Source: an uncultured Gemmatimonadaceae bacterium
GTDB lineage: Bacteria; Gemmatimonadota; Gemmatimonadetes; Gemmatimonadales; Gemmatimonadaceae
Assembly: GCA_963817955.1 (NCBI GenBank)
Contig: CAWFQK010000004.1
Span: 672,001-736,000, forward strand
Length of the DNA stretch: 64,000 bases
Reading direction: 5' to 3'
The position numbers and the translations under genes were made by a program. The notes below the pieces were generated by a model. The model saw only the letters and a program-made list of their open reading frames with translations. It had not been told where the DNA came from and made no database searches. The stretch's first letter is position 1, and every line of letters begins with the position of its first letter. This document shows positions 1,116 to 64,000 of the stretch, one piece after another.

Positions 1116-1315
1116 CCTTACTCCACGGGTGGTAGCAGGTTCGGCTGGATACACTATCCTTGCGAACGCTTCGGGGCAAGCCGCGCGTATGTCCTTAGTT
1201 GTTCACAGTGGCCTCATGCCCTACCGTCAAGGCAGCCCACGTAGCATTCTCTACGGTCGTGCGTCCGCTGCGCTCCGCGTTCAGTTCCCCTCCCCAGCCC
1301 TCGACCTCAGCGATC

Positions 1316-2263: not shown

Positions 2264-2427
2264 GCCGCCGCTCACGAGGTTGATGTCGGCCTCGGCGAGC
2301 GATAGCGATGAGGGCGAGTAGCTTCGTGAGCTCGCAGCTCTTCGTGTTCGACCGCCTGCGCAGAGAACGCTGGCGGTCGAACACTGATCAGGGCATGCGC
2401 ACCAGGGGATTCGACGTCGTCCATCGC

Positions 2428-2979: not shown

Positions 2980-3103
2980 TACACTCGAGTGAACGGGACA
3001 ACCCGATGATATGCTGTCTCGCGGCTGGAGTCCAGTCGGACGTGTGCGCCGCATCCAGTATCCGGCCCTTGTGCCGCGAACCAGAATGGACGAGGATGCT
3101 CGC

Positions 3104-6243: not shown

Positions 6244-6388
6244 ACCTCTGGTTAACCGGGCGGCGACATGCAGCCCGCGCGCAAGCTCGGTCGCAATGGA
6301 CTCGAGTGCTGTCGGCGAAGTAGTGATGACAATGTCAGGCGTTCTACGAACACACGGGCGCGATCTTGACCGTGCTGTCGGTCAACCA

Positions 6389-6889
6389 TCACCCACCGCG
6401 CGCAAGACGAACCGCGGCACCCACGAGGATCACCCCGAAGATCGCGTTTGCTCGTGCCAGCAGCGCCGCTCGTCGACGAAACGCCAGCGCCTGCACGGAC
6501 CCGGGCACGGCGCGTCCGGCACGCGGCCCATCGATGAAATCGTGCACGGCGCTGACGGTCACCATCACGACCACTGCGGCGAGCTTCACACCGAGGGCAT
6601 GGCCGAGCGCGGTGTTCCAGAATGCCGGCGAGTCGAACACGCCTTGCCAATGCAGCAAACCACGGTAGTGAAGGTTGATGATGCCCGTGACCACGAGCAC
6701 GCCGATCGACCACCAACCGGCGCGGCGAAAGGCGACTCCCAGTTGCTGAAAAAGCGCTTGGCGCAGCGGCGGCGGCTCAATGGAGCGGAGCACCGGCGCC
6801 CCGACGGCGCCGAGAAAGAACATGCCGCCGAGCCAGAGCATGGCGGCGAGCACGTGCACGGTGACGTTCAGGAAATACAACGCGGACAT
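6389..6889 (-). CDS. CopD/DUF4149-like four-TM protein
   Basis: HVLAAMLWLGGMFFL, KL...HDF; 4 TM helices. Confidence 0.7.
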   Translation of the reverse strand: MSALYFLNVTVHVLAAMLWLGGMFFLGAVGAPVLRSIEPPPLRQALFQQLGVAFRRAGWWSIGVLVVTGIINLHYRGLLHWQGVFDSPAFWNTALGHALGVKLAAVVVMVTVSAVHDFIDGPRAGRAVPGSVQALAFRRRAALLARANAIFGVILVGAAVRLARGG

Positions 6890-6911
6890 GTGTGGTTGGA
6901 AGTGCGGTGTG

Positions 6912-7244
6912 TCAGCGAGTGCCCGGACGCGGCGCGATGACGGCGGCGATTACGAGGCGTTCATCGGCTGCGCGCATGCCATGTGGCTCATTCATGTCGT
7001 AGGCAATGATATCACCCGGCTTGACCGCGCGTTCGCCGTCTGCCCCCTCCACCAAACCGTGGCCTTCAATGACGAAGAGGAGCACGGTGGAGGGACTGGT
7101 GTGCACGGGCACTCGCTGTCCCGCCTCGATCCGGAAGATGACGACGCGCGCATCCGTGGCATCGTGGGCGAGAACGGTGGCCGGCTTCTGCGGATTGGAT
7201 GAGACTGCCTGGAGTGCGAGGGCCGACGCGTCGTAGACCTTCAC
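6912..7244 (-). CDS. Cupin domain protein
   Basis: PVHTS...IEGHG...PGD...EPHGMRA; GTG start overlaps upstream stop. Confidence 0.85.
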   Translation of the reverse strand: MKVYDASALALQAVSSNPQKPATVLAHDATDARVVIFRIEAGQRVPVHTSPSTVLLFVIEGHGLVEGADGERAVKPGDIIAYDMNEPHGMRAADERLVIAAVIAPRPGTR

Positions 7245-7471
7245 GCCGCGGTGACCGCTTCGCGTACGGCTCGTAGAAGGGCGTCGAGGTCTAGACCGTT
7301 GGCTTGCGCCGCCTGGGCAATGCTCAGACCGCCGCCGCAACAGGTGTCAACTCCAAAGGTATTGAGAACCGCAATCGCATCCGGGAACCGCGCGATCGTG
7401 TCGTTGACGGTCCAATCGGCGCTGATGTCAGTGACTTTCTGCAAGGATACTTCCTTATTGCGAGACGGCAT
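7241..7471 (-). CDS. DUF542/ScdA N-terminal-like small protein
   Basis: FGVDTCCGGGLSIAQA motif. Confidence 0.85.
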   Translation of the reverse strand: MPSRNKEVSLQKVTDISADWTVNDTIARFPDAIAVLNTFGVDTCCGGGLSIAQAAQANGLDLDALLRAVREAVTAA

Positions 7472-7488
7472 TGCGAAAGGGCGCGGCT

Positions 7489-7947
7489 TTATTTGAGCGA
7501 CGGCCGTGAAGCTGCGCAGACCGTGTCGAGCTGACTGTCAGATAACGCAAACCACTCGCGCTGGTAATCACACACGCGCCGGACGATATCCGTTCCATCA
7601 AAGATCAAACAATTGTTGCCCTGGCATTCGTAGGCGGGCATGCGAGTCTCCCGTACGCGCCACTGGCGCCCGTCAGACCCAAGAAAGTAACGCTCACGGA
7701 CATCAGGAACGTATTGCGCGCCTGGAAGGCTCGTTGCGGCAGATGCAGGCTTCTCGGTGAGCAACAGAATGAGGGTGGAAAGCGCTACGAGGATGGATCC
7801 GGGGGAGTACGGGTAAACAAATAGCAATGCCCGTACCACAAATATGGCATCCAAACACTCGCCGCGCACCATGGATGATTTAGGGGGCGTTCGTAGTGGG
7901 AATGCCGGCCCGGTGCCAGAGCACCGGGCCGGCATGGAATGACTCAC
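7489..7947 (-). CDS. Hypothetical protein (true start probably further downstream)
   Basis: ORF with DGRQWRVRE...CLIFD...RRV...W motif; 5' part looks non-coding. Confidence 0.45.
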   Translation of the reverse strand: MSHSMPARCSGTGPAFPLRTPPKSSMVRGECLDAIFVVRALLFVYPYSPGSILVALSTLILLLTEKPASAATSLPGAQYVPDVRERYFLGSDGRQWRVRETRMPAYECQGNNCLIFDGTDIVRRVCDYQREWFALSDSQLDTVCAASRPSLK

Positions 7948-8663
7948 CTGATCTCGATGCGACGCCGATTGTGTTCAGCCTGCTTGGGCGCCGGCACCTT
8001 GATCTCGAGCACGCCGTCCTTGAACGATGTGTCGACATGCTCAGTGTCCGCGGATTCCGGCAATGGAATGGCGCGGTAGAACTCGCCGTACGTCCGCTCC
8101 GTTCTGTAGAAGCCTTCCCGGTCCTGTTCGTTTTCCTCCTGACGCTCTCCACAGATGGTCAGGATGTCGTTTTCAACTTCTACCTGGATGTCATCCTTCT
8201 TGACGCCGGGGAGATCGGCGCGGATCACGAACTTGTCGCCACTCTGAAATGTCTCGACCGTCGGGAATCGAAGGTCCGCTGACGTGACGAGGTCGGCAGG
8301 CAAGGTGCGCCCGAGGCCGCCAGTCAACATCGGATTCAGGCTCAGCCCGGTCCACGGACGGCCGAACCCGAGGTGCCCAAAGAGCTCATCCATGTCCTGG
8401 GCCATCCGCTGCATAACACGAAATGGCTCAGCCGTAAGGCCACCGCCAATGTTCTCCCGCAGATTGCCTTGTTCCGAGCGACGCGCCAGGTCGCCACGCT
8501 TGGGTTGGCGCTGTTCCCGACCCGTAGCGATGGAGCGCTCCTGATCACTCCGGCCGCTCTCCGTTCCGTGCACGTCGGTAGTGGAAGATGTTTGTTGCGT
8601 GCTGCCGGTCTGCTGCTGCGTTCCCGTTTGCCGCCCCTGGCCCTGCTGCGTCTCACGCGCCAT
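7944..8663 (-). CDS. Hsp20/alpha-crystallin small heat-shock protein
   Basis: [36 protein letters not shown] 8663 after GGGGA. Confidence 0.92.
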
Positions 8664-8801
8664 TGCTGTATCCCCCTGTGGTGTAGTCGCGGCGATCGAT
8701 GCGACCGCCGCGCCGTCTCGCAGCAACGGATGTGCCGACAACATCACGAGTCGTGGCGCGTAGCGTGCGGTGCTGCGACCATTCTCCCGCCGGAGTCTCA
8801 C

Positions 8802-11294
8802 GTGCCTGACACCCCCTACGCATTCGACAAGACGCTGTCGAGTGCGGTGCCTGCGACCGAACTCGAACCCACCGCCGCAGCCGCCGCGTCTCGCGGAACG
8901 CTCATGCAGGATCGGCCGGGGAGCATCACGGACGAGCAGCTCGCCCGGATGCACCGATATTGGCAAGCGGCCAACTATCTGACCATCGGGCAGATTTTTC
9001 TGCAGGACAACCCGCTGCTCCGCGAGCCCTTGCGTGCCGAACACATCAAGCCCCGACTCCTGGGCCATTGGGGCACGTCGCCGGGTCTCAACCTGCTGTA
9101 CGTGCACGTCAACCGACTCATCAAGGAGCGCGATGCCAAGTTTCTATATCTCGCCGGTCCCGGCCACGGCGGCCCGGCGCTCGTCGCGAATGTGTACCTC
9201 GAAGGGTCGTACTCGGAGGTGCTGCCGGAGATCACGCGCGATGTCGCGGGCCTGCGGCGGCTCTTCCGACAGTTCTCTACCCCGGGCGGCATTCCCAGTC
9301 ATGTCAGCGTGACGACGCCGGGCTCAATCCATGAAGGGGGCGAACTGGGGTACGTGCTGTCACACGCAGCGGGGGCGGTGTTCGACAACCCGGATCTGAT
9401 CGCGCTCGCCGTCGTCGGCGACGGCGAAGCGGAGACCGGACCGCTCGAGGGTTCATGGAAGCTTACGAGTTTCCTCAACCCGGCCCGCGACGGAGCGGTG
9501 TTGCCGGTCTTGCATCTCAACGGGTACAAGATCAGCGGCCCCACCGTGCTCGCGCGAACCAATGACGCCGACCTGCGCGCGCTGTTGCAGGGTCATGGCT
9601 ACGACGTGCTGTTCGTCGAGGGCGACGAACCGGCTGCGGTGCATCGCCAACTCTCCACCGCCCTCGACCAGTGCTACGAGCGCATCCGGACCATTCAGCG
9701 CGACGCGCGGCAGCGCGGCGCGGCTCACGTCACGGCGCGTCCACGCTGGCCGATGCTCGTCCTGCGAACACCGAAAGGGTGGACGGGTCCGGCCGTCGTC
9801 CACGGCCTGCCGGTGGAAGGTACGTTTCGCGCGCATCAGGTGCCGCTGACCAATCCGAAAACAGACCCGGCCGAGTTGCGCATGCTGGAAGAATGGATGC
9901 GCAGCTACGAGCCGGAGCATCTCTTCGACGACCGTGGTGCGCTGAGGCCAGAGCTCCAGGCGCTTGCCCCCACCGGCGACAGGCGCATGGGCGCCACGCC
10001 GCACGCAAACGGCGGCCGCATCCTCCAGCCGCTCGCGCTTCCTGATTTCCGCGACTATGCGCTCGAGGTCGGCGCGCCCGCCACGATGCGCGCCGAGTCC
10101 ACCAGGCGGCTCGGACAGATGACGCGCGACATCTTCGTTCGGAATCGCGAGGCATCGAATTTCAGAATCTTCTGTCCCGACGAGACGAACTCCAACCGGC
10201 TGGCGAACGTCTTCGACGTCGAGAATCGTTGCTTCGTCGGGCCGCACCTGGGAATAGACGACCACCTGGCCCCGGACGGACGCGTGATGGAGGTGTTGAG
10301 CGAACACCTCTGCGAGGGATGGCTCGAGGGATATCTGCTCACGGGCCGGCATGGGTTGTACGTCACGTACGAGGCGTTCGCGATGGTGTCGGCGTCGATG
10401 ACCGTGCAGCACGCCAAATGGTTGGAGGAGTCGTTGTGTCTGTCCTGGCGCGCGCCCGTCGCATCGCTCAACATCCTGCTGACGTCCACCTGTTGGCGAA
10501 ACGACCATAATGGGTTCAGCCATCAAGGACCGGGCCTCATCGACGTCATGTTGTCGAAGCGCGGCACCGTCGCGCGCATCTACCTGCCACCGGATGCGAA
10601 CTCACTACTCACGGTGGCCGACCACTGCTTCCGCTCGCGCAGCTACGTCAACCTGATCGTCATCGACAAGCAGCCCCAGTTACAGTGGCTGTCGATGGAA
10701 GACGCCATTGCGGGGGCACGACAGGGTGCGGCGACCTGGACGTGGGCCGGCACACCCGGATCAGATGGGGCGGACCCCGACGTCATCCTCGCCTGCGCCG
10801 GAGACACGCCGACCCTGGAGACTGTCGCCGCCGCATGGTGGCTACGCCGCCTGGCGCCCGAGTTGCGGGTGCGCGTGGTGAACGTCATCGATCTCATGAC
10901 TCTCTTTCACCCCGACGTGCATCCGCATGGCATGAGCCGCGAGCGGTTCGTGGAATTGTTCACGCGTGACCGCCCGGTGATCTTCGCCTTTCACGGATAT
11001 CAAAACGCTGTGCACCAGATCATCCACGGCCGCCCCGCCCCGTCGCGATTCCACGTGCGCGGCTTCAAGGAGCAAGGCACGACGACGACGCCGTTCGATA
11101 TGGTAGTCCTGAATGGCATCAGCCGCTTTCATCTGGCATCTATCGCCCTGAAGTACGCATGGCCGGATGATCCCAGGACGCCCGAGCGCATGGCCGAGTG
11201 CGAGCGTAAGATCCGGGAGGCAGTGGAGTACACGAGGGAGTACCTCGAGGACCCGCCGGAGATTCGCGATTGGACGTGGCAAGAGACAGGGTGA
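8802..11294 (+). CDS. xfp: Xylulose-5-P/fructose-6-P phosphoketolase
   Basis: [44 protein letters not shown]. Confidence 0.96.
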
Positions 11295-11339
11295 CACGTG
11301 TCCGGCTACTCCCTTTAACGCAGAGCGGTAGAACAGCTG

Positions 11340-11608
11340 TTAACGCAGAGGTCGCAGAGAACTGCAGGAGAACTGCAGAGGACTGCAAAAGAGAACTGCA
11401 AAAGGGAACTGCAAATAGAGCACTGGAAAAGGGAACTGCAAAGAGAACGGGAAGCGTACGGAAGAGAGAAGCGCGTATTGGTGGAATGAACCGTGATTGC
11501 CGAGTCCACAATCATTCCGCTTATATCATCGATGATCCCGACCTGGGCGAAACCATCCTTCACGGTCCTCTGCAGTTCTCCTGCAGTTCTCTGCGACCTC
11601 TGCGTTAA
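11340..11608. repeat. 44-bp perfect inverted repeat pair enclosing AACTGCA-rich repeats and a GxxExxY-like gene remnant
   Basis: 11340-11383 is the exact reverse complement of 11565-11608. Confidence 0.9.
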
Positions 11609-11628
11609 AAAGCTGTTCTGTCGGCCAC

Positions 11629-11739
11629 AGAGATCCTTCGCTCCGCTCAGGATGACAGGCCGTCGCTCAGGATGACAGGCCTCGGCAAGAGATCCTTCGC
11701 TCCGCTCGGGATGACAGGCCGTCGCTCGGGATGACCGGC
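11629..11739. repeat. REP-like tandem repeat (GAGATCCTTCGCTCCGCTCRGGATGAC), two ~59-bp units
   Basis: CGCTCRGGATGAC occurs four times; ATCC/GGAT internal hairpin; lies between convergent genes. Confidence 0.85.
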
Positions 11740-11759
11740 TTCGCCCCTCCCGTGTCTCC

Positions 11760-12686
11760 CTACCCGACCGCCCGTTCCGGTAACACTGTTCCTTCCGCCC
11801 AGCTCACCGGCTCTGCGACGACCACCGGATGAGCAACGGAGTGCAGTTCCTCGGCCCAGTCCGCAATCCGCCGCATGACGTCCAGTTGATCCGCCATCAC
11901 AGAAAACTGATGGTCGACGTCTGGCAGGAACTCCGCGCGAATGCGGTCGCCGATCCCGAACGGCGCCATCGTGTCGCGGAATTGATCAGCGTAATTGTAT
12001 TCGACCAACGCATCGCCCGAGTAGAGCAAGCGGATGTGAACGCCTCGGTCCAGTAGCCGGCTGAGACCCGCCGCAAACTCCGCCCGGGTGGGAATGAAAT
12101 TGACGACCCCAAGCCGCGGCACCGCTTGCGCCGAGGGAGCGCCGACGGCGGACGAACGAACCCAGGAACGACCTGCTCCAACGCCCCGTTTCAGGAAATT
12201 CACAACCCGGGACGCCAGCTGCGGCTCGCCGAGCGCCCGGGCGTAATAGATCAGATGCGTTTTGAGAGTTGGGAAACGGTACGCATCGAACATCAGCAAG
12301 CCGGCCACACGCTCGTCGCTGAGCGCTGTAGCGTATCCATGGTAGGCGCCGGAACAGATCCCAAAGATCGCGAACCGACTGATCCCTGCCGCGGCCCCGA
12401 GGGCGTCCATTGCGGCGCGGATATCGGCCATGGCCTGCGCCTCGAACGTGTTCTCACCTGTGAGCCTGGCACTGTCCCCGTGACCAGCGAGGTCGATGCG
12501 GATCGACGCGATCCCGCGCGCCGCGAGATAGCGGGCCACTCGCACGTTGATGCGATGGGGACCAACGCGGTGGATGATGCCGGCGTTCAACAGGACGAAC
12601 CCAGTCTCTGCCAGCCCGCTGTCTGGCAACGCGATAGTTCCGACGAGGCCCTCGTTCGGACCAAAGGCCAGGGAATGCTCTTTCAT
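11760..12686 (-). CDS. Alpha/beta hydrolase (exosortase-associated hydrolase-1-like)
   Basis: LNAGIIHRVGPHR, DLAGHGDS, GICSGA elbow, DH near C-terminus. Confidence 0.85.
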   Translation of the reverse strand: MKEHSLAFGPNEGLVGTIALPDSGLAETGFVLLNAGIIHRVGPHRINVRVARYLAARGIASIRIDLAGHGDSARLTGENTFEAQAMADIRAAMDALGAAAGISRFAIFGICSGAYHGYATALSDERVAGLLMFDAYRFPTLKTHLIYYARALGEPQLASRVVNFLKRGVGAGRSWVRSSAVGAPSAQAVPRLGVVNFIPTRAEFAAGLSRLLDRGVHIRLLYSGDALVEYNYADQFRDTMAPFGIGDRIRAEFLPDVDHQFSVMADQLDVMRRIADWAEELHSVAHPVVVAEPVSWAEGTVLPERAVG

Positions 12687-15550
12687 AGCTCCCCCTTGAT
12701 CTCCTCGAGCATGCTGCGAATGTCATCCGTCGGGACCGTGGAATCCGCCAGCATGTCATTGACGAGCCAGTTGATGTCGGATGCCGTCGTTCGCAGCGAT
12801 ACGTCGATCCCAGCTCGCTCCAAGTCCTGTCCCAACTTTGCCGTCTCACCGTCGGCGCGTCCCGTGAAGAGGCTGACCGCTGCTCCGCATTTCTCAAAGG
12901 ACCCCGCCGCCAGCTTGCCAAGTTGTTCTCTGAGCAACGGAGTCAATGGATGTCCGAGCGATTCAGTCCTGGCCTCCTCGATTGCACGTGCGGACAACTG
13001 GCCCTGCATCTCCCAGCGCCTTCCGTATTGCGCCTTCCGGGAGGCGACATGAGCGTTCGCTAATTCGTCGAGATACGCAGCCCCGTCAGTGATCGGCTCC
13101 CAGAGGACCAGCCGGTCCGGCGCACGATTCGCCCGCGCCGACGCCAAGGCGGCTAACGTCCCCCCGAGCTTCAATCCCAGCCACACGCTGCGCCGTGCGC
13201 CGCTGCGGCGCAGCAGCTCCTGGTGCGCCTGCAGGATATCCGACGTCCATCCGTCGATATCACCCAACGCATCGTCACCAGCGGAATCACCAGTTCCGAA
13301 GTAGTCGAATCGCAGCACGTGAAATCCGCTGGCCGCCAGGCGCTCGGCAAGAATCCTGAACACACGATGCGAGCGCACGGCTTCCTGGCCAAACGGATTG
13401 CAGAGGATGCAGCATGCCGACCCGTACTGCCCGCCAGCCGGCACGTGGTACAAGCCGACCATTTCCCGATCCGGCAAACCAAAACGAATCACGTTGACGT
13501 GCGACTCCGTGGTCGAGGACCGTGGAGTAGCCCGCGTAGTGCGGATAGGCACGGTGCGCGCGGCGGCGGTGCCGTTCGCCGTCGCCGACCGGTTGCCCTG
13601 GCGTGCGGGGTTCGCTTTCTCGAGAGCTGCAGCCAGCAGTGCGGTCGTGGAATTCTCGAATACGGTTTGCAACTCGAGCGCGACGCCGAACTGGGCCTCG
13701 ATCTGGGCGACGGCCGCGACCACCATGAGCGACGAAGCGCCCAGGTCGAAGAAGTCGTCATGCACCCCGACGTGATCGAGCTTCAGGAGCGCGCCCCAGA
13801 TCGTTGCCAGTCGCTTCTCCGTTTCGCTGCTCGGCGCAATGAACTCCTGCGTCCTCGATGCGTCATTGTAGTTCGGAACCGGCAACGCCCCGCGGTCCAC
13901 CTTTCCGTTCTGCGTGAGCGGGAATGCAGAGAGGAACATGAAATGGGACGGCACCATGTAGTCGGGCAGTCGTTCCCGTAAGAAGCGACGCATGTCGTCC
14001 GCTGACGGCGCGCTTCCATCGAGCGGAACGACATACGCGACCAGACGCTTGTTGCCGGGCGGCTGCTCGTGAACGAGCACCGTTGCCCCGCGTATGCCTG
14101 GCTGGCCGGCCAGCGTCGTTTCGATCTCACCAAGCTCGATCCGATACCCATGGATCTTGACCTGATTGTCGGCGCGACCCAGGTATTCGAGTATGCCGTT
14201 CGGGCGGTATCGCGCCAGGTCCCCCGTCTTGTAGAGACGTGCACCCACGCGTCCGGAAAACGAATCGGGCAGAAACCGTTCGCGCGTCAGCTCCGGACGG
14301 TTGAGATACCCGCGGGCCACGCCGGCACCGCCGATATAGAGCTCGCCCATCTCACCGATCGGCACGGGCTGGAGCGATTCATCCAACACATACAGCTCAG
14401 TGTTCGCGATCGGCCGTCCAATAGGTATGGAGCCGTTGGGCGGATCCTCGGGCCGTACCTCGTACACGCAGCATCCCACGACCGTCTCGGTCGGTCCGTA
14501 CTCGTTGATCAGACGTGTGGCCGGCGCCACGTCGCGCCAGAAGCGCAGACTCTCGGCGGTCAGATTCTCGCCGCCAATGATGAAAGCGCGCGTCATCCCT
14601 GGTGCGGCACGCGCTCCAATCCGTTGCGTGAGCAGCTCCAGGTGCGCGGGCGTAATCTTGACGAGCCCTCTCTGCCGACCGTCCTGCAGGGCCGCGATCA
14701 GACTCTGTGCGCCGACATCTTCGGGCAGCAGTTCCGCCCGTCCCCCGGCGAGCAGTGCGGGATACAGACTCGTGATGGTCAGGTCGAATGAGATCGAGGA
14801 GTGCACCGGCACGACGTCGCCGGCTCGAACGCCATAGGCACCAATCGCCCACCAGAGATAGTTGACCAGCCCATCGTGCTGAATCAACGCGCCCTTGGGC
14901 CGTCCCGTCGACCCGGACGTATAGATCACGTACGCGAGGTTGGTGGGCGTAGCCGCCGCAGAAAGGTTTGCGCGACTCTCCTGATCGATCGCGCCCCAAT
15001 GTGAATCCAAGCATATCAGCTTGTGCTTCACCTGTGGAAACAACGACTCGGCATTCGCGTCGGTCAGCAGGAGGTGCACGGCGGCATCTTCCACCATGAA
15101 GGCCAAGCGTTCCGCGGGGTACGTTGGATCGATTGGCACATAGGCCCCACCGGCCTTCCAGATGCCCAGCAGCGCAATCACCATCTGCGGCGAGCGGTGC
15201 ATCGACACGCCGACCAGTGTGTCAGGGCCGACGCCGCGGCGGCGCAAGTCGTGTGCGACCTGATTGGCGCGCTCATTGAGCTCGCGATACGTCAGCGATT
15301 GACTTCCGGATGTGACAGCGATCGCCAATGGCGCACGTGCCACCTGCTCCTCGAACAACTCGTGCGCGCACCGATGGGGGAATGGCGCGAGCGTCGCGTT
15401 CCACTCATCGATGACCCGATGGCGGTCCGCCTCGGTCAACGTAGCAGGAGGTGCACGGTACTCAGCACTCAGAGGATTCAGCTCCGTCTCCATCGCCGCT
15501 CTCACGTCAACGTGTCTTGAGCCATTCGAACGCAAATCCCGAACCATCAT
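12683..15550 (-). CDS. Stand-alone NRPS-like protein: adenylation - PCP - alpha/beta hydrolase domain
   Basis: YTSGSTGRPKG, NEYGPTE, YKTGD, NGKVDR; PCP FFDLGASSL; C-terminal PFGQE...RFDYFGTGDS...GLKLGG. Confidence 0.93.
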   Translation of the reverse strand: MMVRDLRSNGSRHVDVRAAMETELNPLSAEYRAPPATLTEADRHRVIDEWNATLAPFPHRCAHELFEEQVARAPLAIAVTSGSQSLTYRELNERANQVAHDLRRRGVGPDTLVGVSMHRSPQMVIALLGIWKAGGAYVPIDPTYPAERLAFMVEDAAVHLLLTDANAESLFPQVKHKLICLDSHWGAIDQESRANLSAAATPTNLAYVIYTSGSTGRPKGALIQHDGLVNYLWWAIGAYGVRAGDVVPVHSSISFDLTITSLYPALLAGGRAELLPEDVGAQSLIAALQDGRQRGLVKITPAHLELLTQRIGARAAPGMTRAFIIGGENLTAESLRFWRDVAPATRLINEYGPTETVVGCCVYEVRPEDPPNGSIPIGRPIANTELYVLDESLQPVPIGEMGELYIGGAGVARGYLNRPELTRERFLPDSFSGRVGARLYKTGDLARYRPNGILEYLGRADNQVKIHGYRIELGEIETTLAGQPGIRGATVLVHEQPPGNKRLVAYVVPLDGSAPSADDMRRFLRERLPDYMVPSHFMFLSAFPLTQNGKVDRGALPVPNYNDASRTQEFIAPSSETEKRLATIWGALLKLDHVGVHDDFFDLGASSLMVVAAVAQIEAQFGVALELQTVFENSTTALLAAALEKANPARQGNRSATANGTAAARTVPIRTTRATPRSSTTESHVNVIRFGLPDREMVGLYHVPAGGQYGSACCILCNPFGQEAVRSHRVFRILAERLAASGFHVLRFDYFGTGDSAGDDALGDIDGWTSDILQAHQELLRRSGARRSVWLGLKLGGTLAALASARANRAPDRLVLWEPITDGAAYLDELANAHVASRKAQYGRRWEMQGQLSARAIEEARTESLGHPLTPLLREQLGKLAAGSFEKCGAAVSLFTGRADGETAKLGQDLERAGIDVSLRTTASDINWLVNDMLADSTVPTDDIRSMLEEIKGEL

Positions 15551-15592
15551 TTGTCTACAATCGCGTCAACGATCTCTGATGTCAGCGGCCCA

Positions 15593-16768
15593 TCACAGCG
15601 ACCAGGCGATGAGCTCTTTCATGACTTCATTGGCGCCGGCATAGATGCGCTGCACGCGGCTGTCGGTCCACATGCGGGCAATTGGATACTCGGCCATGAA
15701 CCCATAGCCGCCGTGCAATTGCACGCACTCGTCGATGACCCGGCACTGCATGTCGGTAAGCCAGTATTTGGCCATCGCCGCGCTCGCGTCATCGAGATCG
15801 CCGTTCATGAACCGAACAATGCAATCGTCGACGAATACGCGGCCCACCCGGGCGCTGGTCGCGCACTCCGCCAACTTGAATCTCGTGTTCTGCAAGTCGA
15901 ACATCGGGTTGCCGAACAACGCCCGTTCCTTGGCATACCGGACGGTCGTTGCGACTGCCTCTTCGGCCATGGCAACCGCTCCCACGGCAATGGATAGCCG
16001 CTCGAAGGGCAGTTGCCGCATCATCTGCGTGAAGCCGCGGCCCTCAACGGTTCCGAGCAGATTGGCCGCGGGGACGCGCACGTTGTCAAAGAAGATCTCG
16101 CAGCTATCCAACCCGTGCATCCCGACTTTCTCCAGCGGCCGTCCAACGGAATACCCCGGCAAGTCCTTTGTCTCGACCATGATGAGCGAGATGGCCCGCA
16201 TTGCCACCGCGGCCGGATTGGTCTTCGCGGCCAGGCACACGAGTCCCGAGTGCCACGCGTTGGTGATGAACGTCTTGGAGCCGTTGATCACGTACGAATC
16301 GCCTTCGCGCCGCGCCGTGGTCTTGATCCCCGAGAGATCAGATCCAGCGCCCGGCTCCGTCATCGCGATTGCACCCACGAGCTCACCGCGCGCCATGGGC
16401 GGCAGCCACTTCTGCTGCTGGGCGTCGCTCCCGTATGCCGCGATGTAGTGGCCGACGATGTTCTGCACGCCGGAGCCGAAGTTGATGCCCGCGCGCGCTA
16501 ACTCCTCTTGTACGACGCACGCGTGAGCGAACGTGCCTCCTCCGCCAATCCCCAGCGGCAAGTCCGGAAGCAACAAGCCAAGGCAGCCCGCATTCAGCCA
16601 GTCTGACGGATCGGGATGGTGCTGCTGGCGCCAGCGATCCTGTTGCGGCTCGAATGTCTGCTCGATGAAGCCGCGCACGGCATCGCGGAACAGGCTGACA
16701 TCTTCCGTCTCCCAGGGGGACTGATAGGCGTTCGCCGGCCTGAGGCTCCGTTCAACGTCAACTGTCAT
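15593..16768 (-). CDS. Acyl-CoA dehydrogenase family protein
   Basis: AMTEPGAGSD, NGSKTFITN, QLHGGYG, IYAGANE. Confidence 0.95.
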   Translation of the reverse strand: MTVDVERSLRPANAYQSPWETEDVSLFRDAVRGFIEQTFEPQQDRWRQQHHPDPSDWLNAGCLGLLLPDLPLGIGGGGTFAHACVVQEELARAGINFGSGVQNIVGHYIAAYGSDAQQQKWLPPMARGELVGAIAMTEPGAGSDLSGIKTTARREGDSYVINGSKTFITNAWHSGLVCLAAKTNPAAVAMRAISLIMVETKDLPGYSVGRPLEKVGMHGLDSCEIFFDNVRVPAANLLGTVEGRGFTQMMRQLPFERLSIAVGAVAMAEEAVATTVRYAKERALFGNPMFDLQNTRFKLAECATSARVGRVFVDDCIVRFMNGDLDDASAAMAKYWLTDMQCRVIDECVQLHGGYGFMAEYPIARMWTDSRVQRIYAGANEVMKELIAWSL

Positions 16769-16878
16769 CCGAGAAGATGCTCCATCGCACTAGAGGATTT
16801 CGCTGGTCCTTCCCATCGTTTGGGGGATGCTGTGCATGGGTCATGCTCTTGGGTACGGCAAGAACTTCGGCCAGGTTG

Positions 16879-17670
16879 ATGTCGACAATTTCCATGTCCA
16901 GTTGGAATGAATGGACACTCGCAGAGACATGTACGACGGCAGCGTGTACGCTGCAGAGCGACAGCGCGCACGTGTGGCGAATGGTGCTATCGGCTGCCGC
17001 AGCAGAGCGTTGGGGGCCGCTGCTCAGTCACGATGAGACGACGCGAGCCTGCGCATTTCGAAGCGCCGAGGCCCAACGACGATTCATCGCGAGTCACGGG
17101 ATGCTGCGCGCTATCCTGGGGAGCTACCTCGGTGTTCCAGGCCACGATGTTGTCGTGACAACGCAACAGTGGGGCAAGCCGATCGTTGCGTCGCCACTAC
17201 ATCCCGAGATCCAGTTCAACATGTCGCATGCGGCAGACGTCGGCCTGGTGGCAATCGGAATCGGCCCTGGCGTGGGGGGGGGGGTGGGGGGGGGGGTGGG
17301 GGTCGACATCGAGAGCATCGAACATTCGCCGGACTGGAACGGGCTACTCGATCTCGCGCTCTCGCCCGACGAACGGATGCATGTGCTCTCGCTGCCGCCG
17401 GCAAACCGACAGGCGGCCTTTCTGACGTACTGGACGCAGAAGGAGGCGTACCTGAAAGGAATCGGAGTCGGGCTGAAGCCGCACCCCGGCGAATTGGCCG
17501 TCGTCTCCGGTCCGGACCGGTCGGCGCGCATTCAGACATCGGGCAGGATTGGCCCCGATGCGGACTGGATTGTCACTCCCCTTCCCGCGCCCATGGAGGG
17601 ATACGTCGCCGCGTTGGCCACCAATACTGTGGTCAGGGAAATAGTGCTGCGGGCCTGCTCAGCGGCGTAG
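16879..17670 (+). CDS. Sfp-type 4'-phosphopantetheinyl transferase
   Basis: WGKP, FNMSH, VGVDIE, WTQKEAYLKGIG. Confidence 0.92.
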   Translation: MSTISMSSWNEWTLAETCTTAACTLQSDSAHVWRMVLSAAAAERWGPLLSHDETTRACAFRSAEAQRRFIASHGMLRAILGSYLGVPGHDVVVTTQQWGKPIVASPLHPEIQFNMSHAADVGLVAIGIGPGVGGGVGGGVGVDIESIEHSPDWNGLLDLALSPDERMHVLSLPPANRQAAFLTYWTQKEAYLKGIGVGLKPHPGELAVVSGPDRSARIQTSGRIGPDADWIVTPLPAPMEGYVAALATNTVVREIVLRACSAA

Positions 17671-55263: not shown

Positions 55264-56222
55264 CTACTGGAACGCCTCTTCCAGTTGTCTCAACCGCGCC
55301 GCGAGCTGCTGTCTGACTGACTTCGGTGCCAGCACCTCGGCCTCCGGCCCGTACTGCAACACATGCCGCATTGCCCAGTGCTCGTCCGCGAGCGGATGCT
55401 CCAGCGTCAGGCTGCCGTCCGGGGCAACGCACTTCCCTTCCCGCTCCGCGATCCATCCAGCGATGCGCGCCGAGTAGCGCACAACGAGTGTCTCGGCGCG
55501 CTCCGCCTCGAAGAGACGGGTGCCCGTGATGATCTCATCGACTGAATAGTCGGGAGCAAGCTCGAAGTGTCTCGTCGGTCTGCGCCACCGACTCCATCCG
55601 GTCGAGCCGGAAGACTCGCAGCGCCTCGCTGGTCCTGGCAGAACGCCACCATGTACCACATGCCGCGAGCGAACACGAGGCTGTACGGGCAGACAATACG
55701 CGATCTCGAGGTCGTCGATGCGCCGGCACGATAGCGGATCTCGAGCTTGCGCCGCAGGCGATGGGCGGCCTGAATGGACGCGAGGTGATCGGCACCAGCG
55801 GCCGAGATCTCCGCGTGCTGTACGCCTTCGAAACGGTCATTGACCGGCAGTCGAGTGATCGCCTGTCGCAGGCGCTCGAGCGCGCGGTCTACTGCCGGCC
55901 ATTCCTCCGGCGTCCGCTCGCGTCGCAGGAGCGCAAGCCCAAGCTCCAATGCGCACAGCTCGCGCATCGTGAGTCGCATCGGTCGCAGGAAGTGCGTCGT
56001 GAATGCACTCACTTCCCTGTCGTCCCACTCGAGGCTCAGGCCGGCGACGAATCCGCTCGGTTCGTCGAAGCGTTCGCCGAGGGAGATCACGTCATCCAGC
56101 AATGTCTTGCGGGAGACGCCCAGCCGTTCCGCAATGTCATCGATGGCGTGGGTCTCGCCGTCCGCGACCTGCGGAATGAGGAGGAGGATTCGATTGAGCG
56201 CGTGCGCGGCGGTGTCGCTCAT
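55264..56222 (-). pseudogene. PafC-like WYL regulator, second copy, with frameshifts near 55635 and 55570
   Basis: Highly similar to 45271-46227; single-base insertions (may be sequencing errors). Confidence 0.85.
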
Positions 56223-57325
56223 GCGTCCACCCGTGAGTCCGCCTGTGAGTCCGCCAGACTGCGATCGTAGAGCTTGCGCGTCGTCTGGAGCACCTCGCGG
56301 AACTGCGCGATGATCTCGGGCGGACCAAGCGGTATGGCTTCACCGGCGAAGGAGAGCAGCCACCACACGAATCGATCGGGCCGCCGCACGGCAAATATCC
56401 GGTGGGTCGGTGCGTCCGTCACCGGCGAGCCGAGTGCGGCAGCCGCGATCACCGCGCCGCTCGAGCCGCGGAACTCCACCGTCACCGAGACGACCTCATT
56501 GTCGCCGAGTTCCCACGCGAGTCGGGAGCGAGCGTGCTCGCGGAGCACGAACGATCCCGGAATCTCGTACTGGGGCACCTCGCGGTCGGGAGCAAGCTGC
56601 TTCACTCCCGCTATGCGATTGACGCGGAAGTTGCGCAGTGCACCGCGATCGACGTCTCGCGCGACGAGATACCAGTGTGCGTTGAGAAAGAAGAGCCCAT
56701 AGGGCTCGACCGTCCGAGCGGTGGCGCTGTCATTCGCGACCGCGCGATACTCGAAGCGGACCAGCTTCCGACCGTGCAGGGCGTCGCCCAACGCCTCGAG
56801 CACCCGCCTGTCCGCTGGCGCGCGGGCGGGCACAATCACGGTGTCGTCCGTCGCCGACACGGCTCCGATGGGAAGATCGTACGCCAGCTTCCGCATGGCG
56901 CTCGCCACGTCCGCCGCCAGGGGTGCGTTCCCGAGCTGCTCCGCTCGCGCCGCGCCCTCGGCCACCGCTTGCAGTTCATCCGCGTCGAAGCTCAGGCTCT
57001 TGAGCGAATGATACCCGAACCGATCCACCCGTGAGGGTGTCGACTTCCCGCGTGGCGTGGTGACGGACAGATAGGGCAGGTAGAAGTCCGCGGTGCGCAG
57101 ACGATACCGAAAATCCGTCTCGCCGTCCTCTCCTTCGCTTTCGATGGGAACGCCAAAGGCTTTCAGATCCTTCTTGTCGCGTTCGAACTGGCGCTTGGCG
57201 GTCGCCCTCTCCTTTCCATTGTAGGCCGGTACTTCGCGGGCGATCTCATCGAAGGTGATGGCGCGCTGACGACCGAGCAGCGCGGCCAGGAGGTCGATCC
57301 AGCGTTGCAGCTTGGACGATGACAT
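56219..57325 (-). CDS. WYL-domain regulator, PafB-like (intact copy)
   Basis: RQFERDK..L...GVPI, VEPYGL...WYLVARD...FRVNRI, WCX domain. Confidence 0.92.
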   Translation of the reverse strand: MSSSKLQRWIDLLAALLGRQRAITFDEIAREVPAYNGKERATAKRQFERDKKDLKAFGVPIESEGEDGETDFRYRLRTADFYLPYLSVTTPRGKSTPSRVDRFGYHSLKSLSFDADELQAVAEGAARAEQLGNAPLAADVASAMRKLAYDLPIGAVSATDDTVIVPARAPADRRVLEALGDALHGRKLVRFEYRAVANDSATARTVEPYGLFFLNAHWYLVARDVDRGALRNFRVNRIAGVKQLAPDREVPQYEIPGSFVLREHARSRLAWELGDNEVVSVTVEFRGSSGAVIAAAALGSPVTDAPTHRIFAVRRPDRFVWWLLSFAGEAIPLGPPEIIAQFREVLQTTRKLYDRSLADSQADSRVDA

Positions 57326-57379
57326 TCGCTACGCGGTGGGGAGCTGGTGCGGCATTGGAAGCCTATTCGAAGGAGAAAC

Positions 57380-57562
57380 TTACCGCTCCTGAACCTCGAG
57401 AATCACGATGTTCCTGAACGTCGGGTGCTGCCGTTGGAGCTCCGCCTGGATGGCGAGTTCCGACTGACCGTAGACCGTCAATACGGCCCGATTGACGCGT
57501 CGCTGGTCCGAGCCATCGGTCGAGTGCTCATAGATGACGCTGAATGTCTGGTAGTGCGCCAC
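57380..57562 (-). CDS. 60-aa hypothetical protein, copy B
   Basis: GAGGAGG RBS; paralog of 46842-47024. Confidence 0.7.
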   Translation of the reverse strand: MAHYQTFSVIYEHSTDGSDQRRVNRAVLTVYGQSELAIQAELQRQHPTFRNIVILEVQER

Positions 57563-59460
57563 TCAAGTCGCCTCCTCTGTTCTGGGTAGGTGAGGCCGCA
57601 CCAACTCCGTGAGCGTTTCCTGGTCTACAATAGACTCCGACATCAGCCGATTGGCTATGGCATCCAGGAGCGGGCGATGCTGGGCAAGCATCTCCTTCAC
57701 CACTCCGTATTCTGTAGAGAGGAACGCGCGCACGAGTTCCTCGATGTGTGCCGCTTCCGAGCTAATGTCGAAAGGTGTGGAAATAGACGGAAGGCGGTGA
57801 CACCTTCTCGGGTGAGTCCAATCACCCCCGGGAGAATCCCGGCAACGAAAAGGAGCCACCGCCCATGAAGAAGATGAAGGATGAGCCAGCCACGTCAAGC
57901 GCGACGTGGGACACGTTGGAGTCCTTTGCGCGGATGCATATCCAAGGATTCATTCAGCAGCTGTTGGAAGAGGAGGTGACCGAGCTGCTCGGGCGACAGA
58001 AGTCCGCGCGCCGCAGCGCGGTGGATGCGCCGACCGGGGCGCGCAACGGGCACGGGAAGCCGCGAAACCTCTCGCTCATGAATGGGACCATCGTGGTGCG
58101 CCGGCCACGGGTGCGCGACCTGGATGAGCTGTTCGTGAGCCGCCTGCTGCCGCTCTTTCAGCGGCGCACCAAGGAACTGAGCACGCTGTTGCCCGAGCTG
58201 TATTTGCATGGCCTCGCGCTCGGGGATTTCGAACTCGCGCTCCGCGGCCTGTTGGGCGACGGGGCGCCGCTGAGTGCGAGCTCGCTCGTGCGCCTCAAGG
58301 CGACGTGGCAGGCGGAGTATGCGGTGTGGCAGCGGCGCGACCTGAGCGACCTCAAGCTGGTGTATCTCTGGGCGGACGGCGTGTATGTGAAAGCCGGGCT
58401 TGAGCACAGCAAGGCAGCGCTCCTGGTGTTGATCGGCGCCGACGCGGAGGGGCGGAAACACGTTCTCGCGGTGACCAGTGGCGAACGCGAATCGGTGGTG
58501 AGCTGGACCGCCGTGCTCCGCGACCTGAAGGCGCGCGGGCTCTGCGCCCCCAAGCTCACGATCGCCGATGGGCATCTCGGGCTCTGGGGCGCACTCGCGG
58601 CGATCTATCCGACGAGTGCCGAGCAGCGGTGTTGGAATCACAAGATACGGAATGTGCTCGACCTGGTGCCGAAGAAACGCCAAGCCGAAGTCACCGTGCA
58701 GCTCCAGCAGATCGCCGCGGCGGAGACACTGCGGGCGGCGGTGCGGCTGCGCGATGCGTTTGCCCGCACGTACCGTCGCGTGGTGCCCAAAGCCGTCGAG
58801 TGCCTCGAGCGTGATTGGGACCGCCTGGTCGCGTACTACGCCTTTCCGCAGGAGCACTGGAAGCATCTGCGCACGACGAACGTGATCGAATCACCGTTTG
58901 CCGCGGTGCGGCTCCGCACGATCCGCGGCGAAGCGCTTCAAGAAAGTCGACAATGCCACGACGTTGATCTGGAAAACCTTACTCGTCGTCGAACAACATT
59001 TCCGCAAACTGAACGCCCCGCACCTCTGTACCGACGTGTACGATGGCGCCGTGTTTCACGACGGTATCTGCACCGTGACCCCGACCCGGGAACGGATCGC
59101 CGCCTGACGCCTATTTACACACCAATTGACAAGAGCTCCCGCTTCCGAGGCGCAGATTGATACGCACGTCGTGACGCATATCGGCGTACGTGTCTCGATC
59201 ACCAGACTCGTACAGGAACTTGTACGATTCCACAACGGCACCCTTCAGGTTCGCAGACGGCAGGATGGATGAGTATTCCGGAACATTCTGGCCGTCGGAG
59301 TCGATGACGGCGACCAGGGCGTGTCCAGCCTCGTGGTACGCCGTCTGCCGGCGGATCGCTTCTATCTCCGTGGACGGCAACTCTGCCTCCTCGAAGCCGC
59401 GCAGGGTCAGGTTGACCAGATCGACGAACTCCAATTTGCGTTTCTCGCGTGGGGCCGATT
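57563..59460 (-). pseudogene. FtsH/peptidase M41-like C-terminal domain interrupted by IS256
   Basis: TAYHEAGHALVA at ~59315-59350; HRPLLDAIANRLM..IVDQETL tail at 57563-57758. Confidence 0.8.
57759..59138 (+). mobile_element. IS256-family element with 28-bp imperfect IRs and 8-bp target duplication CCGCTTCC; transposase 57865-~59107 (frameshift near 58920)
   Basis: RNGHGK, YLWADG, IADG, QRCWNHK, LRTTNVIES; TSD at 57751-57758 and 59139-59146. Confidence 0.95.
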
Positions 59461-59484
59461 AGTATTCCTATTGCAGGGCTGCTC

Positions 59485-60050
59485 CATGCTGATTGAGAAC
59501 CCGATAGCAATCGCCTCTTCCTACTGGGCGAAACTGCCACGATTAATATGGCAGAATCACATCCCAGTAGCCTCGACGCCCATGGGCGAATCGAAAATAA
59601 TGGTTCGACTCGACTTGGGCGGACGTGACGACGCATACACGTTACACGTTCTCAGATGGAAATCAGGGGCCGGAGTATTCATTCCGGCCTTGTGGGTGTC
59701 CGAAACCCTCAACCAGCATCAGAGGAGGTGAAGATACATGCGAATCGGGAAACCGAAGAAGGCACTCCGCAAACTGCGCGGCACGAAGCGTGGCAACGAG
59801 GTGCCGAATCGGCGGACACGAGTTTCGAACGGGAAGCCCTCATGGTTCCCGACGGATATCGCGAGCGTTGCCAAGGCCGTTGGTAAGCTCGTCACTTCGG
59901 AGGTCACGAAGTGCCTAGTGACCGAGGCTTACAACGTCATCCGCGAATACGTATCGAGACTCACCATCCGCACTACACTCCGCTTCGGCGGCTGCACCAT
60001 ACGACTAGACCGAGCGCTCTCGAAAGTCATGAGCGGCTCGGTCTTGTCAA
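59485..60050 (+). ncRNA. Candidate large structured RNA upstream of the RT
   Basis: More than ten stems found by eye, C(UUCG)G tetraloop at 59980-59991, long hairpin at 60003-60048. Confidence 0.55.
59486..59731 (+). CDS. Possible small ORF (81 aa) overlapping structured region
   Basis: Open frame only; no clear RBS or motif. Confidence 0.2.
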   Translation: MLIENPIAIASSYWAKLPRLIWQNHIPVASTPMGESKIMVRLDLGGRDDAYTLHVLRWKSGAGVFIPALWVSETLNQHQRR

Positions 60051-60064
60051 TTCCTCCGGTATGA
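59738..60064 (+). CDS. Basic 108-aa ORF coupled to the RT
   Basis: AGGAGGT RBS at 59723-59729; stop overlaps RT start (ATGA); no recognisable family. Confidence 0.45.
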   Translation: MRIGKPKKALRKLRGTKRGNEVPNRRTRVSNGKPSWFPTDIASVAKAVGKLVTSEVTKCLVTEAYNVIREYVSRLTIRTTLRFGGCTIRLDRALSKVMSGSVLSIPPV

Positions 60065-61164
60065 CGAACGCAGGTCGCAAGCTCGGACTTGGGAGTATCG
60101 CGGGTACGCTGTGCACAAAGATCGCGTGCCTCAGGAAGCACGCCGCTGAAGTGAACACTTCCTATTCGCGTTACCCGAAGAAGAAGTCGTCTGGCGGCCA
60201 TCGGTGGATAAGTACTCCATCTGATGAGCTGAAAGAGCTACAGGGTCGCCTTCGCGAGCGCATCCTCGAACCACTCTCCTCCACGCCCGAACTCCTCGCC
60301 GTGTTGATGCGAGACCCGCTCCGAAATGCTCGCCTGCATGAAGACGCCGCTCACATCTTGATGCTCGACTTGAAGGAGGCGTTCCCGTCAACCTCAGCGC
60401 GGCGTGTGAGAAACACTCTCGTTCGAGCTGGCATGGACTCTCCAGCGGCGCGACTCATCACAGAGCTGACTACATACCGCGACGAGCTTCCGCAGGGAGC
60501 CCCCACGAGCAACGCACTCCTCGACCTGGTTTTGCGCCCAATGGATAGAGCCATCGTTCGGTTCTGCAGACGGCGTGGTGTCCAATACACTCGCTACGCC
60601 GACAACCTTGCCTTCTCATCAGAGGAACCACTCAACTGCGTGGAGCGTTTCGTCCGTCGGAAGCTTGGGGAGTACGAATTCGAGATCAATCCGCCGGTGT
60701 ACGGAGGTCGTTCGGCTCCAGTGGACATAACCGGCGTACTCACTGGCAAGTCTCTCCGGGTTCGGCCGAAGACGATCGAGAAGACCAAGGCTCGTATCAT
60801 CGCCGCCGAGGCCACTGGCTCCGAGCCTGAAAAGGCGTCCGCGAGGGGGGCAATGGGCTGGGTCGTTCGTGTGAACCCTCGACAGGCGGCAGAACTCGTC
60901 TCCCAGACGCTTCCACCCGAAAGTGAACTCGCGAAAGCCCTGGCACCAAGACGTCGGCCTTCAGCTGTTGATAACAGCGTGAGTTGCGGCGAGCGACTGC
61001 GGATTAGCTCAACCTCGCCAAAGTGCCTCGACGGGGTCTACTCCGATTCCCTGATCTGTTCCGGACGGCACCCCATCCCGCCACATCGCGTACAGGATTC
61101 CTACGAGCCGCCGCTCCAGGGCGACCACCGCGATGCGTCAAGTGCGCGACATCACGCCGAGTGA
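60061..61164 (+). CDS. Retron-like reverse transcriptase with YADN motif
   Basis: KKSSGGHRWI..P...LK.LQ, NARLH (NAxxH), LDLKEAFPS, LPQGAPTS, YTRYADNL, ITG (VTG-like). Confidence 0.88.
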   Translation: MTNAGRKLGLGSIAGTLCTKIACLRKHAAEVNTSYSRYPKKKSSGGHRWISTPSDELKELQGRLRERILEPLSSTPELLAVLMRDPLRNARLHEDAAHILMLDLKEAFPSTSARRVRNTLVRAGMDSPAARLITELTTYRDELPQGAPTSNALLDLVLRPMDRAIVRFCRRRGVQYTRYADNLAFSSEEPLNCVERFVRRKLGEYEFEINPPVYGGRSAPVDITGVLTGKSLRVRPKTIEKTKARIIAAEATGSEPEKASARGAMGWVVRVNPRQAAELVSQTLPPESELAKALAPRRRPSAVDNSVSCGERLRISSTSPKCLDGVYSDSLICSGRHPIPPHRVQDSYEPPLQGDHRDASSARHHAE

Positions 61165-61281
61165 CCTCGACAAACACAAAGGTGCGGACAGGCGGTAAGT
61201 TGGCGATTGTCAGTGGTGCGGTGCAAGTTCAATCTCTCGCCGCCCGGCATCACCTGGCGCCCCCTCCTGAACAACTTATAG

Positions 61282-64000
<2,719 letters not shown>

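Follow-up and report, generated by a model that had tools for sequence, protein, structure and literature searches.

Does a strongly folded RNA segment that lies inside an open reading frame, directly before a reverse transcriptase (RT) gene, belong to a retron RNA, to a messenger RNA, or to both? The question is raised by the multi-stem stretch at positions 59779–60050 on the + strand of the 64,000-nt piece of Gemmatimonadaceae DNA analysed here (the window). The stretch resides within ORF108 (59738–60064), and its 3′ end is located 12 nt before the RT start at 60061. The sequence-only reading had listed its stems, proposed a dual coding and template function, and found no convincing a1/a2 arms. 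Our analysis suggests, with a probability of about one in two, that the locus is a hybrid of coding sequence and structured retron RNA, similar to the hyRNA of type VI retrons, in an unclassified clade of YxDN RTs without an HTH gene.

The left edge of the conserved cassette falls at 59452–59470 (+ strand). A 33-kb metagenomic contig, X1, is alignable with the window from 59452 to beyond 61300 at ~94.6% identity and is unrelated before 59452. Upstream, an M41-peptidase-like gene on the − strand is interrupted by an IS256/Mutator (IS256-family) transposase, and an HmaA-like helicase gene, split over at least three frames, is located downstream of the RT. The frameshifts in the HmaA-like and RT genes may be assembly errors. 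Rfam gave zero matches at E ≤ 1 across 57000–62000, nor was there any at the gathering score across the 64,000-nt window. The promoter and terminator scan found no terminator on the + strand and a single weak promoter-like site, which lies within the upstream arm described below.

The minimum free energy of 59779–60050 is −116.9 kcal/mol, as compared with −94.4 ± 4.7 kcal/mol for 200 dinucleotide shuffles (z = −4.81), and none of the 200 shuffles folded as well. As a background, we scored 63 non-overlapping 270-nt segments covering positions 1–17010 of the window; 62 of them have z above −2.6 (mean −0.08, sd 1.48). The sole background segment below −2.6 corresponds to a long inverted repeat without relation to the locus. 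For the RT gene body, three segments of 300 nt gave z of +0.19, +1.27, and +1.49, and the left flank (59180–59450) gave −0.56. The reverse complement of the stretch reaches −2.37, which favours the + strand. The structure is significant, on the strand of the RT, and directly upstream of a retron-type RT, which supports this part of the sequence-only reading.

We computed base-pair probabilities from the partition function of 59470–60085. All stems listed by the sequence-only reading are present in the sequence, and thermodynamic folding recovered them at P 0.81–0.98, save the first hairpin (59779–84/59801–06), which forms if 59779–60050 is folded by itself and is replaced in the longer context by 59761–69/59797–805 and 59774–79/59788–93. 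The fold includes a three-way arm (59812–59971, + strand) composed of the closing stems 59812–16/59967–71 (P 0.95) and 59820–28/59954–62 (P 0.98), a short hairpin at 59830–51 (59830–38/59844–51, P 0.81), and a bulged hairpin of ~100 nt at 59852–59952. The latter comprises the helices 59852–54/59950–52, 59859–63/59942–46, 59865–70/59932–37, 59874–84/59921–30, and 59887–99/59907–19, with P 0.95–0.97. A small hairpin (59980–83/59988–91, P 0.89) and a terminal hairpin of 16 bp (60003–19/60031–48, + strand, P 0.96) follow; between the latter and the RT start is a gap of 12 nt, as the sequence-only reading had stated. Its earlier description as msd-like found no support. Nor did a proposed pseudoknot between 59791–98 and 59866–73: the perfect 8-nt complement is present, but by our estimate chance alone would yield ~0.6 such 8-mers within 272 nt, and the pairing would compete with high-probability stems. 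Two further complementarities involve the region of the RT start. Positions 60053–67 are 80% complementary to 59889–903, and a weak long-range closure on the + strand pairs 59471–59497 with 60054–60080 (P 0.76–0.97 in the window sequence).

The three-way arm by itself resembles a canonical msr-msd, which raises a first alternative: the flagged region would be a non-coding retron RNA with 59812–28/59954–71 as a1/a2, 59830–51 as msr, and 59852–59952 as msd, ORF108 would be a chance frame, and the structured arm further upstream a separate leader. The position upstream of the RT and the succession of closing repeat, short hairpin, and long hairpin match what the available text of PMC7736814 describes. 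Yet the junction that follows the putative a1 lacks an unpaired G, and an equally structured upstream arm with a better a1/a2-like repeat would be left unexplained. Together with the coding signals of ORF108 considered below, these observations make the canonical explanation fairly unlikely in our judgement.

The upstream arm (59486–59719, + strand) contains about six hairpins and is bounded by an a1/a2-like inverted repeat, 59486–97/59708–19, which is 11/12 complementary and ends 3 nt before the SD of ORF108. Because relatives carry indels at 59544/45, 59552, and 59688, we regard 59471–59737 as non-coding. The segment 59480–59725 has z = −4.71 (0/200 shuffles as good) and, when folded alone, is closed by the a1/a2-like repeat. 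Its − strand folds as well as the + strand (z = −5.12), so that folding alone leaves the strand of this arm unassigned.

If the fold is extended by the following 40 nt, a different basal helix wins over the a1/a2 closure. The 5′ strand of this basal stem (59500–59520, + strand) holds the anti-SD UCGCCUCUUC at 59511–20 and pairs at P 0.96–0.97 with the 3′ strand (59722–59749, + strand), which spans the SD GAGGAGGUGA (59722–31), the start codon (59738–40), and the first ORF108 codons. The pairing of 59511–20 with the SD comprises 10 bp, 8 Watson-Crick and 2 G-U, and reaches P 0.97 in each of three sequence contexts; 59507–09 pairs with the start codon and 59500–05 with codons 3–4. By prediction, the SD and the start codon of ORF108 are thus buried in the basal stem, and this stem would join the upstream and downstream halves into a single domain of ~600 nt. 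The whole of 59480–60075 (596 nt) has z = −4.89. The SD-stem conformation is predicted at −106.9 kcal/mol and the a1/a2 conformation at −103.0 kcal/mol, a difference of 3.9 kcal/mol. The sequence-only reading missed the a1/a2 candidates because the best of them, the inverted repeat 59486–97/59708–19 and the SD-sequestering stem 59500–20/59722–49, are located outside the flagged coordinates.

Is ORF108 then a gene? The frame (59738–60064, + strand) encodes 108 residues, and its stop codon overlaps the RT start as ATGA. As the sequence-only reading had noted, it is preceded by a strong SD, with 9 nt from GGAGG to ATG, an ideal spacing. The RT start is without an SD of its own, and the pyrimidine-rich UUCCUCCGGU precedes its ATG. 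The GC content by codon position is 0.54/0.51/0.71, a third-position excess with a permutation P of 0.0007 in the fixed phase and 0.0019 in any phase. In codon-usage log-likelihood, no other sense frame scores as well as that of ORF108, whose score is level with, i.e., no worse than, that of the RT. Spurious frames in high-GC DNA typically follow an R/A/G/P-rich pattern, whereas ORF108 is rich in K, V, and T. These signals of start, frame, and composition all argue against a chance frame and hence against the canonical msr-msd, and they suggest that ORF108 is probably translated.

The protein is an orphan. Searches of 5.8 billion clustered proteins and, with HMMER, of 1.84 billion representatives found no homologue, and no family matched in Pfam, PHROGs, NCBIfam, or PADLOC. 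RT relatives at 38–45% identity do occur in protein sets lacking ORF108 homologues. The language-model recognition score is low (1601), and a search of the ESM Atlas returned nothing above 0.80. The N-terminal 40 residues are basic and the C-terminal part is predicted to be helical; AlphaFold on the single sequence places helices at 41–50, 55–74, and 90–98, with a pLDDT of 46 that is too poor for a structure search. The lack of a homologue or family, the low language-model score, and the low pLDDT are what the canonical msr-msd would lead one to expect, and we estimate the chance of an open frame of 108 codons at 58% GC as a few percent per frame.

The cassette occurs at ~95% identity in at least four public metagenomic runs, which allowed a comparison of close relatives. 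Between 59452 and beyond 61300, X1 differs from the window by 100 differences and 5 gaps. The substitution counts that follow refer to the 40 differences listed, among which X1 appears complete up to 60200; the X4-specific differences are mostly among the 95 others. ORF108 is free of gaps in the contigs of 4/4 runs, as opposed to the non-coding upstream arm with its indels, which again speaks against the canonical msr-msd. ORF108 stays open in X1 despite 17 substitutions among the differences listed, 9 synonymous and 8 not. The 9/17 compares with 5.7 expected when the same mutation types are placed at random (P 0.07, by itself short of significance), and 5 and 3 are synonymous in the two remaining frames, so that a synonymous bias appears in the ORF108 frame only.

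The same substitutions can be read against the fold. X1 carries 28 substitutions within 59470–60085; with respect to pairs of P ≥ 0.8, 14 are unpaired, 8 keep the pairing, and 6 break a pair, as compared with 8.4 broken pairs expected (P 0.16). The substitution tests on structure overall gave P 0.16–0.25. Among the 8 pairing-preserving changes, 5 convert G-C or A-U into G-U and 3 convert G-U into Watson-Crick pairs. No compensatory double change occurs among the 28 substitutions, in relatives that are only ~5% divergent. When the X1 variant is folded, the outer stems of the three-way arm persist, the SD stem has P 0.84–0.93 over 59500–20/59722–49 (0.93 for the 10-bp part), and the terminal hairpin 60003–48 is kept (P 0.92), its 3 substitutions falling in a bulge or loop. 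The long-range 5′–3′ closure shifts register, and 3 substitutions break the register of the window. The inner long hairpin collects 7/17 of the ORF108 substitutions and refolds in X1. Such a clustering is in line with the canonical msr-msd, as the variable part of the retron template stem behaves likewise in the portion of 10.64898/2026.04.27.721009 available to us. The two longest blocks without an X1 substitution among the differences listed, 59452–59545 and 59678–59774, hold both strands of the basal stem. The close relatives neither confirm nor refute the fold and seem to tilt slightly toward coding constraint.

The RT gene (60061–61164, + strand) has a core of 304 aa up to 60972, followed by a read-through tail of 63 aa, and matches Pfam RVT_1 at 4.6e-12. 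The retron RT models of PADLOC score 130–147 bits without a clear winner (RT_II-A 147, III-A 140, VI 138), and NCBIfam retron_St85_RT gives 136.9 bits, under its cut-off of 235. The available text of PMC7736814 defines retron RTs by the NAxxH motif and the [VI]TG triplet. The RT carries both marks; in alignment A1, A90, H93, and G225 are invariant, and N89 and T224 occur in at least 90% of the rows. The catalytic motif is YADN in place of YxDD. An Asn at the second catalytic Asp was found in 8/226 aligned RTs, all 8 of them inside the 10-member clade of the window RT (36–93% identity) and with the other RT motifs intact. A literature search for YADN in RTs returned only unrelated papers on yadN. 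The substitution may alter or reduce the polymerase activity of the enzyme, a point of relevance to msDNA production at this locus.

These features of the RT also call for considering that the cassette is a decaying remnant, in which structure and ORF would be relics without a present function. The Asn at the second catalytic Asp and the lost stop codon with its 63-aa tail would fit decay, as would the fragmented HmaA-like gene and the M41 peptidase gene split by a transposase. On the other hand, the closest database relative of the RT (P0001, 93% identity) ends at 304 aa, and the window gene is 63 codons longer because of a 1-nt indel near 60971 relative to the X1 contig; this and the other frameshifts are possibly assembly errors. 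Since YxDN is common to 8/10 clade members at 36–93% identity with intact motifs elsewhere, it appears to be conserved and not decayed. The cassette has moreover been kept at ~95% identity in at least four runs; the ORF is indel-free in each of the four, and in X1 it is open. We therefore regard a remnant as very unlikely.

To place the RT, we calculated a FastTree phylogeny of 226 sequences over 286 columns. The window RT and P0001–P0009 form a clade of 10 sequences with a support of 0.996, which joins its nearest group (L009, L010, L163, L035, and P0010–12) in a clade of 17 with a support of 0.84. The grouping of the window clade with the HTH-RT loci has supports of 0.38 and 0.84. An XRE/Cro-type HTH gene resides within 500 nt upstream of the RT in 8/230 fetched retron RT loci, and 4 of these 8, namely L009, L010, L163, and L035, belong to the clade of 17. 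Their upstream genes encode 105–132 aa, overlap the RT start by 4–11 nt in three loci and end ~10 nt before it in L035, and match Pfam HTH_3 at 6e-15 to 6e-13. On the RT_VI model, the canonical L071, L219, and L077 score 237–252 bits, L035 scores 203 with RT_VI as its best model, and the window RT scores 137.7.

ORF108 itself gave no HTH signal at E ≤ 10; hhalign against an HTH profile returned a probability of 0.9%, and the six-frame HMM scan E ≥ 0.2. We also considered ORF108 as a frameshifted HTH gene. The collinear matches were weak (E 0.65–6 in a six-sequence search), and we attribute them to chance. As RNA, the HTH coding sequences of the sister loci have z of +0.6 to −1.6, so that the nearest relatives sampled do not have an RNA structure of the ORF108 type. 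The next relatives without an HTH gene (L022, L061, and L040) show no strong upstream structure, with z of +1.3 to −2.3.

The search for more distant loci covered contigs, genomes, and plasmids. In genome contigs, a search with the RT alone found nothing. The search of metagenome, genome, and viral contigs with alignment A1 recovered only generic retron RTs of at most 41% identity, and P0002–P0009 (38–45% identity) were not encoded by any of the fetched loci. Neither 61 related genomes nor 401 genomes from the same phylum contained a close relative. In plasmids, identities were below 29% among the 15 listed of 152 matches, and all 152 were under 60%. The blastn searches of both halves of the structured region against the genome and the 242 fetched loci returned only the halves themselves.

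The sister loci bring up a third alternative, in which ORF108 is a plain gene for an accessory protein or an effector, the upstream arm alone is the retron ncRNA, and the stems in the ORF are local mRNA features involved in stability, pausing, or coupled control of the RT start. The compact layout of ncRNA, small gene, and RT, with the a1/a2-like repeat closing 3 nt before the SD, would be well explained, and the sister loci do carry a gene of 105–132 aa at the RT start. The 80% complementarity of 60053–67 to 59889–903 would also fit local translational control. What weighs against it is the extent of the structure: the 272 nt, with z = −4.8, depart far from the coding sequences scored for comparison (+0.2 to +1.5 for the RT and +0.6 to −1.6 for the HTH genes of relatives), and the 596 nt fold as one domain whose halves are tied by the SD stem. 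An ordinary gene next to a separate ncRNA is therefore quite improbable to us.

We consider dual use as structured retron RNA and mRNA the best reading because ORF108 shows coding signals independent of the fold and because type VI hyRNAs provide a published precedent. The dual function proposed by the sequence-only reading holds in this form, i.e., as structured retron RNA plus mRNA; the role as a reverse-transcription template (msd) that it had included is without support. In the hybrid reading, the flagged stems would be the downstream, protein-coding half of a structured leader RNA of ~600 nt (59471–60080) of a retron operon. The upstream half could close in two ways, by the a1/a2-like repeat or by the stem in which the ORF108 SD and start codon are hidden, and the downstream half would be the ORF108 mRNA folded as the three-way arm and the terminal hairpin just before the RT start. 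The operon would be transcribed as the ~600-nt leader plus the RT, and the RT would bind the leader RNA. The leader fold would silence the translation of ORF108 and of the RT with it, because the RT, lacking an SD, is proposed to depend on coupling through the ATGA overlap. A trigger may then open the SD stem, either when the RNA refolds into the a1/a2 conformation, which is close in energy, or through reverse transcription of a template hairpin. The small, basic, and helical ORF108 protein thus released would act as an effector or as a partner of the RT. We infer the translation and role of ORF108, and any reverse transcription with its template hairpin, by analogy with the hybrid RNAs of type VI retrons.

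Where would a template reside? Two candidate units of a1/a2 and template are present, one bounded by 59486–97/59708–19 and the other by 59812–28/59954–71 with the ~100-nt hairpin. Because 59812–59971 comes closest to a canonical msr-msd and includes the part that varies most, the template could be embedded in the coding sequence of ORF108. One stretch of RNA would then be both mRNA and template, and the resulting msDNA would be antisense to this mRNA, with the YxDN RT either making it or merely binding. We know of no retron described with a DNA product complementary to its own effector coding sequence, or with an RT turned RNA-binding regulator, and we give this variant of the hybrid reading only a slim chance.

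To date, RNAs that combine a retron RNA with a toxin mRNA are known from descriptions of type VI anti-phage retrons only (two preprints, 2025–26). The present locus suggests the same hybrid-RNA design beyond the retrons recognised as type VI, namely in an RT clade associated with soil and peat, without an HTH partner and with an altered catalytic motif. If true, a wider range of retrons would be under translation-level control. The locus would also offer a compact two-gene system of RNA, small ORF, and RT for linking RNA folding, reverse transcription, and effector release. For annotation, a caution follows: ncRNA and hypothetical small ORF are not alternatives at such loci.

How does the locus compare with known retrons? 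Like the canonical msr-msd of Ec86 (Retron-Eco1), the structured RNA is encoded on the same strand as and upstream of the RT, with inverted repeats around short and long hairpins. Unlike it, the RNA consists of two structured halves, the downstream one within an ORF, and has no Rfam match, whereas the canonical RNA is non-coding and 150–250 nt long according to the available text of PMC7736814. We found no clear candidate for a branching G in the structured leader. The HTH-RT sister loci share with the present locus a similar-sized gene in the same place, abutting or overlapping the RT start. Their upstream gene, however, is a clear XRE/Cro-type HTH gene with unstructured RNA, and ORF108 is without an HTH signal.

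The differences from type VI concern the protein partners and the size of the RNA. The combination of HTH and RT is given as the mark of type VI retrons in the available text of PMC7736814. The present locus has no Cro/C1 HTH gene, and a single ORF of 108 aa adjoins the RT in place of the canonical order of a small protein (SP, 55–79 aa), HTH, and RT. The RT carries YxDN and, with 138 bits on PADLOC RT_VI as against 237–252, is not assigned to the type. In Retron-Vpa2, a single structured hyRNA of ~470 nt unites the msr-msd with a small toxin gene, whose RBS and start codon are buried; terminal repeats connect the 3′ end to the first arm, and the template lies in the non-coding arm (the portion of 10.1101/2025.10.22.683967 available to us). 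The RNA here would be longer, at ~600 nt. In the relatives of Retron-Sen3, the ncRNA is within ~280 nt of a small gene, the RBS is in the basal stem, and the small-protein coding sequence holds 18 significantly covarying pairs (the corresponding portion of 10.64898/2026.04.27.721009).

The locus resembles Vpa2 and the Sen3 relatives in several respects. The non-coding arm is within ~280 nt of the start of the small gene, and the small proteins are fast-evolving and without a sequence family. By prediction, a long structured RNA precedes a retron RT and combines a repeat-closed non-coding arm with the coding sequence of a small protein. Also by prediction, the SD and the start codon reside in the basal stem, and the coding sequence is itself structured, as in both type VI systems.

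The catalytic motif of the retron-type reverse transcriptase (RT; window 60595-60609, + strand, RT residues 179-183) reads Y-x-D-N in place of Y-x-D-D. In our alignment of 226 retron RTs, this asparagine variant is carried by eight sequences, all of which fall inside the 10-member clade of the window RT itself, and the remaining 218 RTs have DD at the catalytic motif.

The translation-start region of the RT (60053-60067, CCUCCGGUAUGACGA) is 80% complementary to 59889-59903, a stretch of the + strand comprising the 5' strand and the Shine-Dalgarno-like loop of the apical hairpin within ORF108, the probable small orphan protein gene whose stop overlaps the RT start. This inverted repeat may serve as a switch coupling RT initiation to ORF108 translation. 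At its other end, the RT reads through 63 codons (60961-61164, + strand) beyond the stop position of its 93%-identical relative because of a 1-nt indel near 60971, identified by comparison with X1, a 33-kb metagenomic contig aligning to this part of the window. The read-through could reflect an assembly error or the onset of decay.

Homology with the X1 contig begins at 59452, leaving outside the shared cassette an FtsH-like M41 peptidase-domain gene on the - strand (57563-59434), which has the HEAGH motif without the AAA+ part and is interrupted by an IS256/Mutator-family transposase gene (57865-59160). Two neighbouring ORFs occupy 55407-57325 on the same strand, the larger of which encodes a WYL-domain regulator (56219-57325; WYL, 1.8e-21, and WCX) and the smaller of which lies beside it at 55407-56222. 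Regulators of the WYL-domain type are often found next to defence islands.

Elsewhere in the window, the intergenic stretch 11295-11760 has an extreme folding z-score of -8.55. It contains a near-perfect inverted repeat of approximately 46 bp, made of short GAGAACUGCA-like tandem units and followed by tandem repeats of approximately 20 nt. A search of Rfam returned no match for this stretch, possibly a MITE-like element or one capable of inversion.

Downstream of the retron lies an HmaA-like SNF2 helicase gene (61282-63999), the first 310 residues of which match the PADLOC HmaA model (1.2e-165), and its coding runs on through at least three different frames. The retron and the HmaA-like gene are likewise neighbours on the X1 contig, and the retron adjoining this helicase may be nested defence cargo of an Hma locus.
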